From: a virus
Taxonomy: Duplodnaviria > Heunggongvirae > Uroviricota > Caudoviricetes
IMG/VR virus record: IMGVR_UViG_2531839239_000026
Direction: 5' to 3' (one strand)
DNA: 9,175 nt
Shown piece by piece: positions 1 to 9,175 of the stretch. Each line of letters begins with the position of its first letter. The stretch's first letter is position 1. Both the position numbers and the translations under genes were made by a program. The notes beneath the pieces are model-generated. The model searched no databases, was not told the origin of the DNA, and saw only the letters and a program-made list of their open reading frames with translations.

Positions 1-1236
1 CTATGATAACCGCGCATTCAACATGGCTACCTGTTCGTCGTTCATGTCATCAATCCACATACCGTAAATTTCATACACCATCTGCGCAGTTTCATGCCCC
101 ATTTGGCTGGCTATAAATGCCGGGTTCGCTCCTGCCGTCAACAGCCAGCAGGCAAAAGTATGCCGCGTATGGTACGGATTACGGCGGCGAATACCAGCAC
201 GTTTTACTGCTGCATTCCACCTTGCCCCCAAACTGCTTACCGAGTAATAAGGTTTTTGTTTTCCGTTACACACCCTGGGCATGAAAACAAAATGCAGTTT
301 TTGCTTTTCGGTTCTGCCGTACTCCCGATGATAAAAGGTGATTTCGCTTTTGCGATGATGCCCGGTCAGTTTGTATTGCTCCTTCAGTGCTTCAAGAGCA
401 GGCTGCAGTAGTGTTACCGTCCGGATCCCCGCATTTGTTTTTGGGGGACCGAACATATCCAGTATCGTCAGGTTTCTTCTGACATTCACAACTCCCTTCT
501 CGAAATCCACATCCTCCCACGCCAGAGCAGCCAGTTCCCCGTGACGAAGCCCGGAGTATACGGCAAATTTCCACAAGTTCTGGCTCTGTCCTTTTTCACT
601 TTCCATTAATGCATTGAATTCTGTTTTAGATAACGGGTCAGGCTTTATTCTGTTTCTCTGTAATTTCTTTACTCCTTCAAATGGTTTGGTTGATATAAAT
701 CCCGACTGATACGCAAAACGTAACAACGAACAGAGCAGGGCGATATAGTTATCAACTGTGCGCACGGTTCTTCCTTTTTTGTTGGATCTTGGATTATCCA
801 GGTAAAGCGTTTCTCCATGCAGCAGTTCATTCCGGTAGTTTAAGATATCGCTATAACGAATATGCGATATCGGAGTACTCTCACAAATTATTATCCTGAG
901 TGTTTTTAATTGTGATTTCGTTTTCTTCATTGTGTTTGTTGTTAACTCTGTTTCTTTAATTTTTGTCCAGATATCACAAAGCTCCCCGAACGTTTTTATG
1001 ACCCTCGTTGTCACCATTTTTGCCCCAGTGCTGGACTGGGGAAAACGTCTTAAATACTCAAACTCACCGGAATTGATTTCATGAACTATCAACGCTCTTA
1101 AATTCCCGGCTTTTTTAATGTTACTGTTAGTAACCTCCCAGCCTTTCAATGTTTCCCGACATCGTTTTCCTCGAAACATGAACCAGATGCGAATGTATTT
1201 ACCTCGAATCTCGACACCTGTTGGTAATTTAGACAT
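1..1236 (-). CDS. intR: Tyrosine-family phage integrase (IntR-like), 411 aa
   Basis: Track ORF 1..1236 (-), ATG at 1236..1234, stop TAG at 3..1. C-terminus carries an H-x-x-R motif (HTRHTFA) and a downstream Tyr (VYEIY), typical of tyrosine recombinases. Length matches my recall of Rac IntR. Confidence 0.9.
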   Translation of the reverse strand: MSKLPTGVEIRGKYIRIWFMFRGKRCRETLKGWEVTNSNIKKAGNLRALIVHEINSGEFEYLRRFPQSSTGAKMVTTRVIKTFGELCDIWTKIKETELTTNTMKKTKSQLKTLRIIICESTPISHIRYSDILNYRNELLHGETLYLDNPRSNKKGRTVRTVDNYIALLCSLLRFAYQSGFISTKPFEGVKKLQRNRIKPDPLSKTEFNALMESEKGQSQNLWKFAVYSGLRHGELAALAWEDVDFEKGVVNVRRNLTILDMFGPPKTNAGIRTVTLLQPALEALKEQYKLTGHHRKSEITFYHREYGRTEKQKLHFVFMPRVCNGKQKPYYSVSSLGARWNAAVKRAGIRRRNPYHTRHTFACWLLTAGANPAFIASQMGHETAQMVYEIYGMWIDDMNDEQVAMLNARLS

Positions 1237-1237
1237 A

Positions 1238-1453
1238 TCATGAGTCTTTGATAAACTGATTTATCTTTGGATAGTTATACCAGATAATCCCTCGCTTACT
1301 GTCTGGCTTCCCTAAAGGAGATACTCGTTTGAAGTGGAAGCCTTCCACCCAACAGTTCTGGCGGTATGCTTCAATTTGTCTGGCCCCCAGACCAGTGCGA
1401 AGCATCAGGCCGTATTCAACCATCCACTCTTCATTAAAGATTACTTGTGCCAT
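1238..1453 (-). CDS. xisR: Excisionase-like protein (YdaQ/XisR-like), 71 aa
   Basis: Track ORF 1238..1477 trimmed to the ATG at 1453 ([10 protein letters not shown]...), which is preceded by GAGGTG 7 nt upstream. Stop TGA at 1240..1238 abuts the int ATG, the usual xis-int arrangement. Confidence 0.7.
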
Positions 1454-1552
1454 CGCATCACCTCTGGCAGGCGCCAATGTTAGACTTAAATTGACGCCCG
1501 ATGTTGATTATTAATAATCAGCTATGAAGTTTTAATTTGAATACAATGCAAT

Positions 1553-1741
1553 TCACGAGGACTGAAGTTTCTCGCAATTAAAATTTATCAGTTTTACTTT
1601 CTGCTCTCTGGAAACGCCTGCTTCTTTTTTACCTGAGAGCATTTTTTCGCATTCTGATTTCGTTAGTTTAGATTTTGAATATCTTGTCCAGTTAGTAGGA
1701 GTGCCACCTTCCTTTTCAATAGTGGCGGTAATTTTATACAT
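1553..1741 (-). CDS. ydaC: Small Rac-prophage protein YdaC-like, 62 aa
   Basis: Track ORF 1553..1813 trimmed to the ATG at 1741 (MYKITATIEKEGG...), which has a strong SD (GGAGG, 5-nt spacer). The upstream extension overlaps the ralR frame. Start overlaps the TAA that closes the ralR frame (CATGTATAA). Confidence 0.6.
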   Translation of the reverse strand: MYKITATIEKEGGTPTNWTRYSKSKLTKSECEKMLSGKKEAGVSREQKVKLINFNCEKLQSS

Positions 1742-1928
1742 GAACACCTCCATTATTATTTCCAGTGGTTCGTTTATTTCATCGTTCGAGTGCTTCTTTT
1801 TCACTTCCACCATAACCGGTTCGGGATTCGCATCCGTTACACTTCGCTCGGTAATATCCTGAAATGGCTTTCACCGTTACTGATGGACAACCACAAAATG
1901 GACATGGTTTAACATTGTCATATCTCAT
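1734..1928 (-). pseudogene. ralR: Restriction-alleviation protein / DNase toxin RalR (Lar) frame, interrupted by an in-frame TGA at 1781..1779
   Basis: My own translation of the minus strand from ATG 1928 gives MRYDNVKPCPFCGCPSVTVKAISGYYRAKCNGCESRTGYGGSEKEALER, then TGA, then NKRTTGNNNGGVHV, then TAA at 1736..1734. Reading TGA as Trp gives exactly 64 aa, the RalR length I recall. Cys-x2-Cys ... Cys-x2-Cys zinc-ribbon-like pattern. An in-frame ATG also exists at 1940 (MRKIMRY...). Confidence 0.6.
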
Positions 1929-1983
1929 AATTTTTCTCATAAAAATATTTCAAGTTGGCGGTGCATTACACCGCCAGGCTGAA

Positions 1984-2793
1984 TTATTCCTCTGAATTAT
2001 CGATTACACTGTATTCCCCGGTTAATACAGAGGAATCTGCAGGATCGATTGTCAGTGGTTCCTTTTCATCCATTGATACTGCACGCTGGATCTCAATTGA
2101 TACGGGCAGATATTTGAACAGGCGACGAATAGCCGTTTTCTTTGCCATTTCTTCCCAGTGAGTTACCCACGGCCCGTTATTACCAGCTTTACTCTGGCTG
2201 CGCACCAGCTCAATCTGTTTGCGCGTCATAACTTCAAACTGAGTACCTCCGTCTTTCAGTCTTGCGACAGCATAGACGTGGGTAACAGGGGCATCTTCGT
2301 TTTCTCCTGGGCGGTGTATTAACTTTTCATCAAGGCCAAATTCGAAATTAAACTCGTCACCTTCACGGACAACACGGGCTGACAAGCTGGCGATTTGACC
2401 TGAACGGCGAGCCAGATCAATCATGCCTCGATAGCCAATGATTAGCTGAACGTTTTTTTTACCGCTCTTTTCGTTTTTATTACCAAAAGGCAGTAAATAT
2501 GCATGACCGAGGGCGCTACCGGGCTCAAGTCCGAGCTGTGAACACTGTACGATTGCACTGACAAAACTCATAGTGTCACAGTTTCCTAACGCCGGAACTT
2601 TACGAATTTCTGTGGTGGCGATACGGATCATACGTTCAGCCGTCATATGGCGTGGAAGAGCTGCTGCCAGTTGCTCTTTCATTGATGGCTGGTTAATAAA
2701 ACTAATCACGTCGTTATTTTTAATTGCTGCTGGTGCACGGTTTCCCTGAGTTTTTTGCAGATCGGCTTTTGCGATTGGTGGTTGCTTAGTCAT
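1984..2793 (-). CDS. recT: RecT single-strand annealing protein, 269 aa
   Basis: Track ORF 1984..2850 trimmed to ATG 2793 ([16 protein letters not shown]...), preceded by AAGGA 8 nt upstream. Start overlaps the recE stop by 8 nt. Sequence and length match my recall of RecT. Confidence 0.9.
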
Positions 2794-5386
2794 TTGCATA
2801 TTCCTTAGCCCAGCGGGGCAGTGATAACGTCTTAATAGCTGGCCATTCATCGGTATTGAGGCAGTCAGCCAGGGTTCGCAGATTGCGGTGATATTCCAGC
2901 TGACCTGCCAGTTTTGCTTCTTCGCCCATCATGAAAATTTCAACCGGATAACGTCCGCATTCAATAGTTGTGCTGGCAACCAGAAAAACGAAAGTTGGCT
3001 GCACTCCAAACTGTGCTTCATAACCGTCACTGTAGAATGCATCCTGAACGTGATAGCGGTAGTCGTAATAAGCGGTTTTGAATCGTTGAATATCCGCCGT
3101 AGTTTTCACGTCCATGATCCAGTGAAATTCAGGGATAATTTTGTCCGGACGGCACCGACACAAAATTGCTGTTTCAGGATCTTCCCAGTAAATTGATGAT
3201 TCAGCGTGTCCGGCGCTTTCAACAAGCCATTGCCCCAGCGGCAAAGCCATAACGCTCTGATACATGAGTTCAATTTTCCGGCCTTCTTCGGCAGTGATAA
3301 CCGTTTTTCCTGTGCTTGCGCATTCCCTCAGAAACGCTTTCTCTTCTTCTTTTCCGGAGTTTGTCCGGCGGTTAAATTCAGGTGCTACGATAAAGCGGTT
3401 ACTGAATTCTTCCGGCTCAAGTACCCGGCAGTGGAAAGCGGTTCCTAAATCGAGCGTTTTTGTCTTTGTGGTGTCCACGGGGGCATTTTTACGCCACAAA
3501 TACAGTGCCGGAGTATCAGCAATGTCATCGAGCTGAGACTTACTGACACCGGGACCCGCGTGGTAATTCTCATTCGAAATTCCGTAATAAATACCTGGCT
3601 CTATGTCTTCTACGATTACGGGATCTGCGACTTCGCCAGTTTCATCACTGCAATCGCGATGCGGATCGCTGCCAGCATTCTCATTGTGCGGATGTTCAGC
3701 GCCTTCCATTTCCTCCGGATCATTTTCCTTAGCTTCAACCTGACTCTCTTCATCGAATGTTTCCTGGTATGTTGCGTCGCCCATCACCGCACCACAGTCA
3801 GGGCAGTTATCCCCGCCAGTCTGGCCGCAGGCATTGCAGGCTATTTCCGGTTCCTGTTGCACTACTGGCTCAGGTTGATTCATATCCGGGCTGGTTTTTT
3901 CCGTTTCTGGCTGGTTCTGGTACACACAATCGCGAGTCTGGATCCCCTTTACCCATTTCGGATCGTTCGGGTCGCTAATTCCGTCAACAAATTCACCACG
4001 TGATGCAGCAAGCAATTTATCGGCATCGACAGGATTTTTTGATGGAATGTTTTTCCGGGCTTCATGGAGTTCTGCCCGCAGTTCCTGATATTTCGCATCA
4101 ACAGAATTTACCTGTGACTGAGCATCCAGCGGCTGCGTGTCCTGATGATGTTCAGTTGCGTCCGGTTCCATTGTTTCAGCCTCTCCCTGTTCAACTGCCG
4201 TTGTTCCAGATGGTTGCGGTTTTTCTTCATCATCCTGTTTTCCTTCTTCTGTTACTCGCTGCGGCATCGGGGCAGAGGAGCGACCGCAGGCAATATCCAC
4301 GATTTCCGGATCAGGGTTGGCATGAGCGGTTTCAGTCAGTACTTTGTTCAGATATTCAGTGACGTGCGCGGGGATGACCTCGATCCCAATTGGTGCTTCT
4401 TTTACGGACGCAACCACGATGGCGCGGGAATAATCCAGCCCGCCAGGCATGGTGATGAATTTGTCGCGGAAAACAGAAAAGGGCGGTTTATTTTCAGCGA
4501 TAATTTCCTCAATGCGTTTAGCGTGTGCCGGATGAAGGTTATAGATGTCCAGATCCATTGAACGGGCCAGTACGCCAGTGGCTACGTCGCGCGCCAGTGA
4601 CGTCAGATCGTGTACGAAACCTTCGCCGCGATCGGTGAGGTTTCCGCCGCCAGCATTAGCACCGGAAGCCGTGCGAGTGATGTGTGAAACACGATTACCC
4701 TTCATCCACTCTTTTGTCAGCAGTCCTCGATCGGTGTAGTCAGCGTTCAGGTATGCTTCGAAAAAAGCAGTTATCAGTCCCAGGTTTGAATTACCAGGAT
4801 TAGGGAAAACTTTGTCAGTGTCACGAACCAGTTTGTGGAGTTCGCGAATTTCCAGCGGGTCGAGCAGGCTGGTTTTGTGGGAAACAGCCAGGGCAGTAAC
4901 AGCCGGTAGTTCTTCAGCCCGAGCAATGTGTAATGCCTGGAGTCCGTCGCGTGAAACGTGCGTTACCGGTTTTTCGCTGCCGTGTTGAGCAAGCCAACGA
5001 ATGGGCAGTTCCTGGCCAGAAATTGGGAGTAGCATATTCTCCTCAATCTCAGTCATGTCTTCGCCGTTGACGTTGGTATTGCCTTGATAGTGAGCGTTGT
5101 CTGGTGCTGCTCCCGGTTTTAGTTCCCATGTCATGGAGTCTTTGCTGAGTTGATAGCGTTCACTCCAGGTAAAATCGATCTCACCTTCAGCGGGCAGGTC
5201 ATTAACGACAGGAAAATTCGTGGCAACAGCTTTAAAATAGCTGCTCAGTTTTTTACCTGACTTAACGATCAGGTAGTCCAGAGTGGCACAGGTCGATTCA
5301 AAATCGTTGCTTGCCCACAGGACGACGTCAGGTTCACCGGATGATTTTTTCGCTTTCCGTAACAGGAAGAGTGGTTTTGTGCTCAT
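2786..5386 (-). CDS. recE: RecE exonuclease VIII, 866 aa
   Basis: Track ORF 2786..5386 (-), [14 protein letters not shown]..., full length 866 aa. Has an acidic, low-complexity central region and a C-terminal nuclease region. Overlaps recT. Confidence 0.9.
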
Positions 5387-5457
5387 TGTTTTTTAACCTC
5401 AACTCAGATTAAAATTCGTTTTGTTCAGTGAATGATCTTGCCGGATACACACTGTTC

Positions 5458-5482
5458 ATAGCCTGCGCCATACGCAGGCTAT
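5458..5482. other. Perfect 10-bp-stem hairpin between recE and racC
   Basis: ATAGCCTGCG-CCATA-CGCAGGCTAT: 5458-5467 pairs with 5473-5482, 5-nt loop. Confidence 0.4.
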
Positions 5483-5487
5483 TTCTT

Positions 5488-5763
5488 TCAGATTTCACCT
5501 TTTAATTTCATTGCAATTAGAGTTGCCAGAAATTCGGCTTTTTTTTCTGTGGGCAGATTCTTTCCGATATGCACCAGGCACATTTTTTTGACACCTTCAT
5601 CAAGTGTTTTTACGTTGCCTGATGGACCATCGATATCAACCACAGTGAATGGGGTTTCTTTATTTTCTGTTTTAATTACGTAGCCAATGCGCTTTCCTTC
5701 CAGATTCACCTCGTGAACAATGTCATCGGTAGTTACAACAGTGGCTTCATAATTGGTAATCAT
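5488..5763 (-). CDS. racC: RacC-like protein, 91 aa
   Basis: Track ORF 5488..5811 trimmed to ATG 5763 (MITNYEATVVTTDD...), preceded by AAGGAG with a 6-nt spacer. Confidence 0.75.
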   Translation of the reverse strand: MITNYEATVVTTDDIVHEVNLEGKRIGYVIKTENKETPFTVVDIDGPSGNVKTLDEGVKKMCLVHIGKNLPTEKKAEFLATLIAMKLKGEI

Positions 5764-5837
5764 GTTTTTCTCCTTAATTAAGGTTGAGCGAATACCTGCC
5801 ATTTCTGGCATAAATTCAGTTTCGAATAGTCAATTAA

Positions 5838-6008
5838 TTAAAGTTCATGTGCCATCTGGTCTTTTTCGGCACAAGCTTCACTGCAATATTTTCTCGGTTC
5901 GTCTTTTGATAAAATCCCGTGCATGAAGTGAAGCATTCTTTCAATAGCTTTGCTTTCTTCAACGTCTTTTTTGCAAAGGTGGTAAGCACATTTTATTTTC
6001 TTAGTCAT
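5838..6008 (-). CDS. ydaE: YdaE-like small Cys-rich (metal-binding) protein, 56 aa
   Basis: Not in the ORF track because it is under 60 aa. My translation from ATG 6008: [56 protein letters not shown], stop TAA at 5840..5838. ATG overlaps the kilR TGA (ATGA). Confidence 0.7.
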   Translation of the reverse strand: MTKKIKCAYHLCKKDVEESKAIERMLHFMHGILSKDEPRKYCSEACAEKDQMAHEL

Positions 6009-6229
6009 CACCATGACTCCGCCTTTACAGGTAAACCATCACGACCGAGGAAGACTTTAATCATGCGGTCAGTAATGCATGTTTTTGTGGTCAGGTTACG
6101 AATATATAGTTTTCGCTTTTTAATATTGTTTGCCGAGGCAATATATGTCCGGCCTTCATGAAGAACATAATCGCCAGGAGTCACACACTGACGTGGTATT
6201 TCATCAGTTCCGAAGTGATGTGCAATCAT
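6008..6229 (-). CDS. kilR: KilR-like killing / cell-division inhibitor protein, 73 aa
   Basis: Track ORF 6008..6241 trimmed to ATG 6229 ([14 protein letters not shown]...), preceded by GGAG 8 nt upstream. Confidence 0.8.
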
Positions 6230-6410
6230 AATTATCTCCATTTTTACAAATGAACTTTGTTGATGCGGTGCCTGGTGCCTCCAGGTGACTGCAACCAGTT
6301 AACAATTACAGTCGGCTTTCCCACCCAAACCAATAAGGACTAACATGACTTTTAACTGTGCCACGTGCGCTTAGCCGCATTCACCGCATCACAAAATTCA
6401 CTTTAAAAAG

Positions 6411-6452
6411 GGCGGACATCAGCCGAACTTCAAGAAAAAAACTGATGCCGCC
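6411..6452. other. Long interrupted inverted repeat in the kilR-sieB intergenic region
   Basis: GGCGGACATCAG (6411-6422) and CTGATGCCGCC (6442-6452) form an 11-bp stem with one bulged A around a 19-nt A-rich loop. On the minus strand it is followed by CTTTTTAAA. Confidence 0.3.
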
Positions 6453-6627
6453 AGGACTACACACAGCAATGTCGTTATTTACAACCGGAGGCGCACTCCC
6501 ACCATTTAAATTTAACAGACAAGACCGACTCTTTATGGATATCGGAAATGCGCCTTCGTGTTGTGCCCGGTTTTATTTCACCACCTCCGGGCTTCGGTGG
6601 TCTCGGCTATACCCCTACAGCGAGAGC

Positions 6628-6656
6628 TTGTGTTAACATTTCAATACCCTTACAGT
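6628..6656 (+). promoter_or_regulatory. Candidate sigma70 promoter for sieB
   Basis: TTGTGT (6628-6633), 17-bp spacer, TACAGT (6651-6656), 14 nt upstream of the sieB ATG. Sequence inspection only. Confidence 0.25.
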
Positions 6657-6670
6657 TGAGAGTTATTGAT

Positions 6671-7159
6671 ATGTTGGATGTATTTACTCCATTGTTGAAA
6701 CTTTTTGCTAACGAGCCACTCGAAAGACTTATGTATACGATTATCATTTTTGGTCTCACTCTCTGGCTGATACCGAAAGAGTTTACTGTCGCATTCAATG
6801 CTTATACTGAAATACCTTGGCTCTTTCAGATTATCGTTTTTGCCTTTTCTTTCGTGGTCGCCATTTCCTTCTCAAGATTGCGAGCACATATTCAAAAGCA
6901 TTATTCATTACTACCAGAGCAACGAGTATTGCTTCGTTTATCTGAGAAAGAAATCGCTGTATTTAAAGATTTCCTTAAAACAGGAAATCTTATTATCACT
7001 TCTCCTTGCCGTAACCCGGTTATGAAAAAATTAGAACGGAAGGGCATCATTCAACATCAGAGTGATAGCGCAAACTGTTCTTATTATCTCGTCACCGAAA
7101 AATACTCCCATTTTATGAAGTTATTCTGGAACAGCAGGAGTAGACGTTTTAATCGTTAG
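6671..7159 (+). CDS. sieB: Superinfection exclusion protein SieB-like, 162 aa
   Basis: Track ORF 6548..7159 trimmed to ATG 6671 (MLDVFTPLLKLFANEPLERLMYTIIIFGLTLWLIPKEF...). Two hydrophobic segments suggest a membrane protein. The N-terminal extension in the track is a Pro/Gly-rich intergenic read-in. Confidence 0.8.
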   Translation: MLDVFTPLLKLFANEPLERLMYTIIIFGLTLWLIPKEFTVAFNAYTEIPWLFQIIVFAFSFVVAISFSRLRAHIQKHYSLLPEQRVLLRLSEKEIAVFKDFLKTGNLIITSPCRNPVMKKLERKGIIQHQSDSANCSYYLVTEKYSHFMKLFWNSRSRRFNR

Positions 7160-7311
7160 CTTACTGTGTGCTTCTCCAACCATCGGCGCGCACCAGTTTC
7201 GGTTTTAAATGTTTTGCTTTTGGTATACGTCATGGCAGTGAACGTTCCATCCTGGTTGGGGAACACGCCGCACACCAGGGATTCGTTGTTGCCGAGGTCG
7301 ATTTTTTGCAT
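7156..7311 (-). CDS. ydaF: YdaF-like small protein, 51 aa
   Basis: Not in the ORF track. My translation from ATG 7311: MQKIDLGNNESLVCGVFPNQDGTFTAMTYTKSKTFKTETGARRWLEKHTVS, stop TAA 7158..7156. Its stop overlaps the sieB TAG (7157..7159) on the opposite strand. Confidence 0.65.
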   Translation of the reverse strand: MQKIDLGNNESLVCGVFPNQDGTFTAMTYTKSKTFKTETGARRWLEKHTVS

Positions 7312-7321
7312 TTTGCGAATC

Positions 7322-7456
7322 TCACATCTTGTTGCTACGTATAGCGACTTCTGCCTGCCAGAGATCCCAGTCGTTGCTGCGTAAAGCCTGCACAGCCTGG
7401 TTGTAAGTGATACCGCAACAATCCATCAAATACTGAACTACTTCGTAATGCACCAT
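7322..7456 (-). CDS. ydaG: YdaG-like small protein, 44 aa
   Basis: Not in the ORF track. My translation from ATG 7456: MVHYEVVQYLMDCCGITYNQAVQALRSNDWDLWQAEVAIRSNKM, stop TGA 7324..7322. A GGGGA SD-like element lies upstream. Confidence 0.65.
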   Translation of the reverse strand: MVHYEVVQYLMDCCGITYNQAVQALRSNDWDLWQAEVAIRSNKM

Positions 7457-7632
7457 CTTATCTATCCCCTTAACGCCGGGTGGCGGAACTAACTGCTGCA
7501 CTGCAAAATTTGAATCCCGCCGTCATGTTCATACGCCTCGGGCTGGCTACTTACCCCCTGACCACTGCTTGGTAACTCGAAGTATTGCCCGGCGTTCTGT
7601 GGGGCGGGGTGGGTGGTTGGTGTATGTAATCT

Positions 7633-7672
7633 ACAATAAAAAACTGTTTTTGTGTCAACAGTTTTTAATTGT
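7633..7672. promoter_or_regulatory. OL-like operator dyad with a leftward -35-like TTGACA in its spacer
   Basis: Left arm ACAATAAAAAACTGTT at 7633-7648, right arm AACAGTTTTTAATTGT at 7657-7672 (one mismatch to a perfect inverted repeat). Spacer TTTGTGTC reads TTGACA on the minus strand (7658..7653). The 16-mer left arm is identical to 8668-8683. Confidence 0.45.
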
Positions 7673-7682
7673 TGTTTTGGGC

Positions 7683-7705
7683 AAAAAAATCCCTCGAAAG
7701 AGGGA
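7683..7705 (-). terminator. Candidate intrinsic terminator downstream of parE
   Basis: Minus-strand RNA folds as UCCCUC-UUUC-GAGGGA (6-bp stem, 7690-7695 with 7700-7705) followed by seven U (plus-strand A-run 7683-7689). It starts 18 nt after the parE stop. Confidence 0.4.
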
Positions 7706-7723
7706 GTATGAAAATTGTTCAAC

Positions 7724-8011
7724 TCAGATAGAGAAGGGAAATTGTCGCCGAGAATGTGTCACGCTTACAATCTCAATGCTTGAAGCAGCTACTCTGTACA
7801 GGATTATGTAGTTAGGGTGGGTCACGATCTCTCTCAATCCAGAAACCCGTTCGCTTGGTGGATATAAGTACGGATGCTCAGATAGAGGTAATACCGATGT
7901 TTCAATGCGTATTTTTAGTCTACGTGCTGCCGGTGGGTTCTCCTTGGCGATGTAAGTTATGATCTGGCGCAAATCATCGCGAGCAGACGGTAGCCATAAA
8001 ATGGGTAACAT
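7724..8011 (-). CDS. parE: ParE/RelE-superfamily toxin (ParE-like), 95 aa
   Basis: Track ORF 7724..8011 (-). The C-terminal region ...LREIVTHPNYIILYRVAASSIEIVSVTHSRRQFP resembles the ParE/RelE fold signature. Start ATG overlaps the upstream gene's stop (TAATG), indicating translational coupling in toxin-after-antitoxin order. Confidence 0.75.
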   Translation of the reverse strand: MLPILWLPSARDDLRQIITYIAKENPPAARRLKIRIETSVLPLSEHPYLYPPSERVSGLREIVTHPNYIILYRVAASSIEIVSVTHSRRQFPFSI

Positions 8012-8202
8012 TACTCGCTCTTGTTAGTTACAGCAATTTGAGCAATAAGATTTTCCATTTCAGCCATTACCTCGTCATGTGGAATTGCGGGGCGAGTGTC
8101 TGCAAGGCTTGACGTTACTTTAGTGCGCAACCATTCGTTGTAACTGTTTTCTTGTTCGGTAGTTTCGAATTCTGAAACTATCGGAGAAAGGGCTGTACCC
8201 AT
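8011..8202 (-). CDS. paaA: Small antitoxin, PaaA-like partner of ParE, 63 aa
   Basis: Track ORF 8011..8202 (-), MGTALSPIVSEFETTEQENSYNEWLRTKV..., preceded by a strong SD (GAGGAG, 7-nt spacer). Small and acidic, immediately upstream of and coupled to the ParE-like gene. Resembles the PaaA2 antitoxin of the three-component paaR2-paaA2-parE2 system from my recall. Confidence 0.6.
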   Translation of the reverse strand: MGTALSPIVSEFETTEQENSYNEWLRTKVTSSLADTRPAIPHDEVMAEMENLIAQIAVTNKSE

Positions 8203-8229
8203 GGCATAACTCCTCTTCTTGTACTGTGG

Positions 8230-8631
8230 TCACGCCCGGCGGCTTTTTTGTGCCGCCAGCCACCTAGCAATGGTTTCTTCCATTGATTTTTTCTTGTCTT
8301 TGATTTCTTGAAGCATTTTTTCTTGGTCTTCCTCAGGAAACGCACTAAAAGCTTGGAGCAGTTCGCGTTGGCGAGGACCAATTTTCATCGTGTCAGGGGT
8401 GAAAATTTGCTCACACTCTTCAGGAGGCAATAAAAACCAATGCAATGGATGCCCTGAAACCTCAACCAGTTTATCCAAACTTGAGGCTTTAGGTGTAGCC
8501 TTACCGCTGACCCATTGTTGAACAGTTTGTTGTGTCACACCAATTCTACGGGCAAGCTCAGCCTGGCTCCATCCAGTTTCCTGAAGAAGCTTGCTGATTC
8601 TGTACATAGATACTTCTAGGGCGCTCATCAT
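8230..8631 (-). CDS. cI-like / PaaR-like HTH (XRE-family) repressor, 133 aa
   Basis: Track ORF 8230..8631 (-). HTH region ...SQAELARRIGVTQQTVQQWVSGKATPK... No LexA/S24-type peptidase C-terminal domain is apparent. Divergent from the Cro-like gene across the dyad-containing intergenic region. No SD precedes the ATG. Confidence 0.75.
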   Translation of the reverse strand: MMSALEVSMYRISKLLQETGWSQAELARRIGVTQQTVQQWVSGKATPKASSLDKLVEVSGHPLHWFLLPPEECEQIFTPDTMKIGPRQRELLQAFSAFPEEDQEKMLQEIKDKKKSMEETIARWLAAQKSRRA

Positions 8632-8667
8632 TATTCAATTTTACAGGTAAATACTGTTAAAAGCATC

Positions 8668-8706
8668 ACAATAAAAAACTGTTGATTGCATACAGTTTTT
8701 TATTGT
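8668..8706. promoter_or_regulatory. OR-like operator dyad between the divergent repressor and cro-like genes
   Basis: Perfect 15-bp inverted repeat: ACAATAAAAAACTGT at 8668-8682 and ACAGTTTTTTATTGT at 8692-8706, separated by TGATTGCAT. The spacer carries rightward -35-like TTGATT/TTGCAT hexamers. The left arm is the same 16-mer as 7633-7648. Confidence 0.5.
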
Positions 8707-8739
8707 AGGCTTTGCTTATAGTTTTTAGAGGAGGGCAAA

Positions 8740-9012
8740 ATGCTAGATAGCACTCGCGAAAAAATTAGGCAGAAATACACTCAGGCTGAAATAGGTCGTT
8801 ATATGGGGGTCGCTCAACAGACTGTTTGGCAATGGTTTAGCTTTGGCGTTCCCCCAAAGCAGGTAATTCCGTTATGCCAACTAATGAAGTGGGAAGTTAC
8901 CCCGCATGAAATCCGCCCAGATATTTATCCTAACCCAACCGACGGTTTACCTGTTGGATGTAAGGTTAACACATCAAATGCGCCGGAGTTGATTCATGAA
9001 AATCAAGCATGA
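8740..9012 (+). CDS. ydaS: Cro-like HTH regulator (YdaS family), 90 aa
   Basis: Track ORF 8740..9012 (+), MLDSTREKIRQKYTQAEIGRYMGVAQQTVWQWF... HTH-like region, GGAGG SD with a 4-nt spacer. Sits in the cro position, divergent from the repressor. Confidence 0.7.
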   Translation: MLDSTREKIRQKYTQAEIGRYMGVAQQTVWQWFSFGVPPKQVIPLCQLMKWEVTPHEIRPDIYPNPTDGLPVGCKVNTSNAPELIHENQA

Positions 9013-9175
9013 ACACATCCGCATGGCGATGAATGCCTGGGCGCATCCGGACGGCGAAAAAGTACCGGCTGCGAAAATTACCAAAGCGTATTTCGAGCTG
9101 GGAATGACGTTCCCGGAACTGTATGACGACAGCCATCCGGAAGCCATGGCTCGCAATACTCAGAAAATTTTCCGT
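8996..9175 (+). CDS. ydaT: YdaT-like protein, N-terminal 60 codons (runs off the window end)
   Basis: ATG at 8996 preceded by GGAG with a 7-nt spacer. Translation MKIKHEHIRMAMNAWAHPDGEKVPAAKITKAYFELGMTFPELYDDSHPEAMARNTQKIFR stays open to the window end. Overlaps the ydaS 3' end by 17 nt. Confidence 0.65.
   Translation, partial: MKIKHEHIRMAMNAWAHPDGEKVPAAKITKAYFELGMTFPELYDDSHPEAMARNTQKIFR

Follow-up and report, generated by a model that had tools for sequence, protein, structure and literature searches.

What does a stop codon in the middle of a toxin gene leave behind: a dead toxin, a shorter one, or one whose dose is set by leaky termination? The ralR (lar) gene of the window, by which we mean the whole 9,175-nt stretch of phage DNA analysed here, raises this question. 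Translation of 1928..1734 on the minus strand showed that the ralR frame opens at ATG 1928 and runs for 49 codons (MRYDNVKPCPFCGCPSVTVKAISGYYRAKCNGCESRTGYGGSEKEALER) to a premature TGA at 1781..1779. Behind this stop, the same frame continues for 14 sense codons (NKRTTGNNNGGVHV) to a TAA at 1736..1734, where the neighbouring gene ydaC begins (ATG at 1741..1739, minus strand, CATGTATAA). The sequence-only reading of this DNA had described the same layout of a RalR-like frame, its stop after 49 residues and a 14-codon remainder reaching the ydaC start, and translation returned every one of its coordinates exactly. The relevant parts of the gene are as follows.

1779..1928, minus strand: truncated ralR (lar) CDS, 49 codons plus TGA (Pfam PF14354, RefSeq WP_001443846.1)
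1779..1781, minus strand: premature opal stop at codon 50, where the ancestral codon is TGG (Trp50); followed by A (UGA-A)
1782..1784, minus strand: codon 49, CGA (Arg) where K-12 has AGA; this A>C change is synonymous and completely linked to the TGA
1734..1778, minus strand: untranslated in-frame ralR remainder, 14 codons (NKRTTGNNNGGVHV) plus TAA, identical to K-12

In gene order, the window follows the left end of the Rac prophage of K-12 (intR at 1-1236, then xisR, ydaC/rcbA, ralR at 1734-1928, recT and recE), and K-12 ralR (b1348, 64 aa) lies at the same coordinates of the collinear locus. In the alignment, residues 1-49 and 51-64 of the window frame were identical to K-12 RalR. Identity on both sides of the stop, over 49 and 14 residues and at the same coordinates, reflects homology and not chance. 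Codons 49-50 read CGA TGA in the window and AGA TGG in K-12, and decoding the TGA as Trp gives exactly the 64-aa reference RalR, the length that the sequence-only reading had expected. Its author had also considered that reference RalR might end at codon 50 as well; K-12 RalR runs to 64 aa, which disposes of that objection.

A sequencing or assembly error in the window had been named earlier as one of three explanations of the stop. Nothing speaks for it beyond the prior that single-base errors occur. A 46-mer designed to seed only on the TGA haplotype was found in 310 of 5,426 complete RefSeq E. coli genomes, with one copy per genome, and the TGG-type 46-mer in 1,518 of them; among ralR carriers in this STEC-rich collection of complete genomes, the TGA share is thus ∼17% and the TGG share ∼83%. 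The exact CGA-TGA 81-mer was present in 308 genomes and the K-12 (AGA-TGG) 81-mer in 1,110, meaning that 308 of the 310 TGA carriers have an identical 81-mer. In a larger protein collection, the exact 49-aa protein was found on at least 1,000 contigs. With the TGA and its linked CGA in 310 independently sequenced and assembled complete genomes, an error is hardly credible, and we rejected it. The TGA allele is a known object that is already in RefSeq as a multispecies protein: exactly the 49-aa CDS is annotated by PGAP as RalR (WP_001443846.1), with no pseudogene flag. It is, in other words, an ordinary catalogued nonsense polymorphism. A literature search on truncated RalR in O157 found, within the library searched, no paper on the codon-50 stop allele (W50*).

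To which side of the polymorphism does the ancestor belong? Codon 50 is TGG in K-12, Shigella flexneri, E. ruysiae, Citrobacter braakii and a soil proteobacterial MAG, and the RalR proteins of Salmonella and Citrobacter have W at this position. As the outgroups and K-12 all have TGG or W, the TGA is the derived state. The comparison with reference RalR and its homologues thereby bore out the earlier expectation of a Trp codon at this site. Neither recombinant haplotype, CGA-TGG or AGA-TGA, gave an exact 81-mer match in any complete genome, so the changes at codons 49 and 50 are completely linked, a pattern that fits a single origin. Gene conversion from a paralogue was also considered as a source of the two linked changes, and was rejected because the TGA 46-mer occurs once per genome, so that a donor copy was not seen.

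The TGA carriers include O157:H7, O55:H7, O26, O111, O103 and non-STEC isolates, and every TGA locus sampled occupies the canonical Rac site beside ttcA. Window positions 1-7625 matched O157:H7 ATCC 43890 at 99.92%. Common to the TGA carriers is a near-identical block at ∼1499-3558, comprising ydaC, ralR, recT and the 3′ part of recE. As this block was kept even where the intR haplotypes differ (in strain E2865, for example, intR is K-12-like), the distribution points to spread of the TGA haplotype by recombination or prophage exchange in addition to descent. The sampled carriers showed no further lesions except for one P15S variant, and the allele appears too young to be judged by such lesions. 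The first of the explanations offered earlier, a nonsense allele, is supported by these results: the TGA is derived, heritable and widespread.

Could the 49-aa protein nevertheless be a functional shorter isoform, in which activity resides in the zinc ribbon alone and the last 15 residues are not needed? The product does keep the four zinc-ribbon cysteines C9, C12, C30 and C33 (CPFCG ... C-x-x-C) together with the beta-hairpin, and it scores 39.0 bits against PF14354 (Lar_restr_allev), compared with 53.5 for the read-through form and a cut-off of 28.6, which places it in the Lar family by profile despite the stop. The missing pseudogene flag would also agree with a working protein. The family as a whole, however, argues against this idea. 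A search of 1.84 billion representative proteins returned 1,690 Lar-family members at E ≤ 1e-3, nearly all of whose matches extend to RalR residue 52-55. Among 60 diverse single-domain representatives, W50 and N51 were invariant (60/60 each) and R53 was present in 59, a level of conservation equal to that of the four cysteines. None of these 60 ended before position 54, and an independent alignment agreed. The window product thus resembles PF14354 in its CPFCG...C..C zinc ribbon, the short helix that follows and its above-threshold profile score, and differs in lacking the terminal W-N-x-R motif: W50 has become the stop, and N51 and R53 lie 3′ of it, where the motif is still encoded in frame except for codon 50.

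Structure prediction and selection bear on the same question. An AlphaFold model of RalR (mean pLDDT 78.5) shows a beta-hairpin (residues 17-30), one helix (43-54) and a tail that is disordered (55-64). The predicted disorder of the tail would suit a dispensable C-terminus; a stop at codon 50, on the other hand, would cut the only modelled helix in half and delete its invariant end. A sequence search for solved Lar-domain structures gave only spurious CbpD matches, and a Foldseek comparison of the model with the PDB yielded nothing beyond generic zinc ribbons (E > 0.1), with no information on the role of the helix. Between K-12 and a divergent Rac lineage, ralR differs by 11 synonymous changes and one non-synonymous change (dN/dS ∼0.02); full-length RalR is thus, as a rule, under strong purifying selection across the whole 64-aa frame. 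RalR toxicity is abolished when a non-synonymous change alters the residues that a 16-nt repeat just 5′ of the stop encodes (Guo et al. 2014, PMC4041452). Set against the motif, the helix, the selection on the full frame and the sensitivity of the adjacent residues, a functional short isoform is unlikely.

We therefore read W50* as a natural opal nonsense allele of the Rac type I toxin gene ralR and as an ordinary loss of function, with a probability of about 0.85. The loss or strong reduction of RalR function is the most likely consequence of the stop, and one that we infer from the invariance of the motif, the cut helix in the model, the adjacent toxicity-abolishing change (PMC4041452) and the dN/dS of ∼0.02. 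According to this reading, a G>A transition would have turned TGG into TGA once, on a haplotype with the synonymous AGA>CGA change 5 nt upstream, and the haplotype block would then have spread through O157:H7, O55:H7, O26, O111, O103 and other E. coli lineages by descent and recombination. Termination at codon 50 would be the normal outcome, and the 49-residue zinc ribbon released there has neither the second half of its only alpha-helix nor the W-N-x-R motif, and in this form RalR activity would be lost or nearly lost. The locus would be left with an intact antitoxin, RalA, and a disabled toxin. Rare near-cognate decoding of the UGA by tRNA-Trp would still yield traces of wild-type RalR, as expected from the generic leakiness of any TGG>TGA mutation. 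As a counterpoint to loss of function, the four zinc ligands and the above-threshold Pfam score would leave room for a residual or altered activity. Similarly, a common allele with no further decay is what a young allele would be expected to show, and could also fit one that is tolerated or maintained.

In bacteria and eukaryotes alike, no stop codon is leakier than UGA, and the A1 protein of phage Q-beta is a read-through product. The third explanation offered earlier was that ralR is a toxin gene dosed by read-through. In its stronger form, this would mean that selection keeps the TGA since it lowers full-length RalR to the percent level through tRNA-Trp read-through of UGA-A, possibly in a condition-dependent manner, given that temperature and cAMP influence read-through. 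The proposal is physically plausible. In E. coli, UGA followed by A is reported to be particularly prone to misreading by tRNA-Trp (PMC5289835), and read-through has been described for an mCherry-TGA-YFP reporter and for the native nudL stop, with UGA read-through in the K-12 reporter amounting to ∼2% at 37 °C and ∼4% at 25 °C and varying among cells (PMC10570021). K-12 rates are, however, inflated by the A246T variant of its RF2, which wild-type E. coli does not have (PMC11903333). Insertion of Trp at codon 50 would restore the wild-type protein. We infer a level of read-through at which some full-length RalR is probably made from the UGA-A allele, as would be generic to a TGG>TGA change.

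It is the step from leakiness to selection that the locus does not bear out. The +4 A is present at the TGA, but it opens the invariant Asn51 codon and was thus inherited, not acquired, and RNA folding of 1700-1800 (minus strand) gave no significant structure that could stimulate read-through (z = −0.88). In 308 of the 310 carriers, the 14 codons behind the stop are preserved, and the allele is frequent, as a selected leaky stop would predict; these carriers represent one haplotype with near-zero diversity, however, which makes the downstream conservation uninformative, and the same bases are also constrained by the Shine–Dalgarno sequence and start codon of ydaC. Programmed read-through is marked by a stop and an extension that are conserved across diverged homologues. 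Here, the TGA is confined to a single haplotype, and all outgroups as well as ∼83% of carriers have TGG. The ralR stop thus shares with background tRNA-Trp read-through of UGA (PMC10570021) the opal codon, the +4 A context and an in-frame extension downstream, and differs from such systems in being a recent derived mutation inside a conserved domain rather than a conserved stop followed by a conserved extension. Of the earlier proposal, the physical plausibility of a UGA-A read-through stands, whereas the unconserved stop, the TGG outgroups and the missing stimulatory structure speak against a dosing role. We regard retention of the TGA by selection for a lowered dose as quite improbable. Read-through as a selected function of codon 50 is very doubtful, and the same holds for a selected dosage valve in which temperature- and cAMP-dependent read-through, in a cell-variable minority of events, would supply the authentic RalR DNase. 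If such a valve existed, STEC lineages would keep a strongly attenuated, stochastically expressed toxin and not a dead one; functional low-level read-through would make ralR a natural example of a leaky stop that sets the dose of a toxin, and nothing that we found points there.

Recoding of the UGA as selenocysteine, or a reassigned genetic code, would also turn the stop into a sense codon. Neither has a point in its favour. The region downstream (1700-1800, minus strand, z = −0.88) contains no SECIS-like hairpin, the host, E. coli, uses the standard code, and the residue ancestral to the stop is Trp and neither Cys nor Sec. The probability of either is negligible.

If ralR lost its function through W50*, what became of its antitoxin? 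RalA and the sites through which it pairs with the toxin mRNA are as follows.

1557..1735, plus strand: RalA antitoxin sRNA, full length, antisense to ydaC (Rfam RF02694, 225.1 bits)
1619..1634, plus strand: the 16-nt pairing element of RalA itself, identical to K-12
1791..1806, minus strand: 16-nt RalA-pairing repeat in the ralR mRNA, AAGTGAAAAAGAAGCA, intact and identical to K-12

The RalA match covers model positions 1-179 of 179, above the RF02694 gathering score of 170, and the RalA sequence is identical to that of K-12. Its transcript start lies 62 nt upstream of its repeat, matching Guo et al. (PMC4041452), and the repeat in ralR ends 9 nt upstream of the TGA stop. The hallmark of RalR/RalA, an adjacent convergent sRNA with 16-nt complementarity to the ralR coding region, is thus retained. 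By these comparisons, RalA and its target site are intact, and the toxin reading frame is the only broken part. Compared with the K-12 RalR/RalA type I toxin-antitoxin system (Guo et al. 2014, PMC4041452), the module shares the locus and synteny (recE-recT-ralR-ydaC-xisR-intR at ttcA), an identical RalA sRNA, identical 16-nt pairing elements and RalR residues 1-49 and 51-64. It differs in codon 50, which is TGA and not TGG, in one linked synonymous change, and in its main product, which has 49 aa as opposed to 64 and no WNxR motif. In O157:H7, O26, O111, O103 and other lineages, the RalR/RalA module is thus probably an orphan antitoxin beside a disabled toxin, and conclusions drawn from K-12 RalR (DNase toxicity, fosfomycin tolerance) should not be assumed for W50* strains. 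The RefSeq name treats the 49-aa product as an intact toxin and so overstates a protein from which the invariant motif is missing. Beyond annotation, the W50* allele matters little.

Downstream of the stop, the ralR remainder (1734..1778, minus strand) contains not only the codons for N51 and R53 of the WNxR motif, but also the Shine–Dalgarno sequence and start codon of ydaC.

1553..1741, minus strand: ydaC/rcbA (DUF1187), 62 aa (PF06688, E = 8e-39, whole model covered; RefSeq annotation)

In full-length ralR alleles, the ydaC start overlaps the old ralR stop, and early termination could uncouple the two genes. Since ydaC has its own GGAGG at 1751..1747 (minus strand), 5 nt ahead of the ATG, and folding predicted no significant structure in this region, loss of translational coupling is possible but its effect would probably be small, and silencing of ydaC is unlikely. 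Between K-12 and a divergent Rac lineage, ydaC has seven synonymous differences and one non-synonymous difference (dN/dS 0.03). Based on this ratio and the strong DUF1187 match, ydaC behaves as a protein-coding gene, at odds with a statement in Guo et al. (PMC4041452). The ydaC/rcbA stop is itself polymorphic: window positions 1553-1555 (minus strand) read TGA, as in E. ruysiae and locus L015, giving the 62-aa YdaC that fills the whole DUF1187 model, whereas K-12 (locus L002) and S. flexneri have AGA at this position and a 69-aa product. The C-terminal extension of K-12 RcbA accordingly looks derived.

Other natural variants were seen in the W-N-x-R motif of RalR, in the related proteins P0038, P0036 and P0002 and the loci L017-L022. 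The N51D allele was found on 339 contigs and in 23 of 5,426 complete genomes, in a divergent background. R53Q was found on 360 contigs, with 0 exact matches in complete RefSeq genomes when searched with a guessed DNA query, and W50S occurred in Logan assemblies only. In this incomplete sample of alleles, N51D, R53Q and W50S may represent recurrent disabling of the RalR toxin. A post-hoc hypergeometric probability of ∼8e-4 for the clustering of natural variants in WNxR comes from the same incomplete and biased sample, and we do not rely on it. O157:H7 strain F6294 (NZ_CP038372.1) has two ralR copies ∼46 kb apart, at record positions 2835700 and 2881556; of these copies, W50* TGA is the allele of one and N51D that of the other. 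Furthermore, two proteins, P0012 (67 aa) and P0015 (96 aa), are in-frame fusions of RalR and YdaC. In P0012, RalR ...SEKEA runs into YdaC GVSREQ..., as would fit a deletion between the two 16-nt RalA-pairing repeats; the junction in P0015 is at another short EKE repeat.

At the other end of the gene, an in-frame upstream ATG at 1940 (1929-1940, minus strand) would add MRKI to RalR, and the database RalR entries P0001, P0009 and P0037 start at ATG 1940 or have longer N-terminal extensions. No obvious Shine–Dalgarno sequence precedes either ATG 1928 or ATG 1940. The T-run immediately 5′ of ralR has one T fewer than its K-12 counterpart. The gap between the end of recT and the beginning of ralR also contains a GC-rich hairpin (GGCGGTG-TAAT-GCACCGCC), just downstream of recT at ∼1946-1975 (minus strand). 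This hairpin was not called by a terminator scan, and may be an attenuator or terminator that affects ralR transcription.

In our collection, no complete genome contained the whole window, and the best record covered 85% of it, owing to a right end (7626-9175) that carries a different immunity module and not the O157:H7 Rac immunity region. The genes of this segment are the following.

7724-8011, minus strand: ParE toxin
8011-8202, minus strand: PaaA2-type antitoxin
8230-8631, minus strand: HTH regulator
8740-9012, plus strand: YdaS-like gene

The segment matches other O157:H7 prophage sites at 99.2%.
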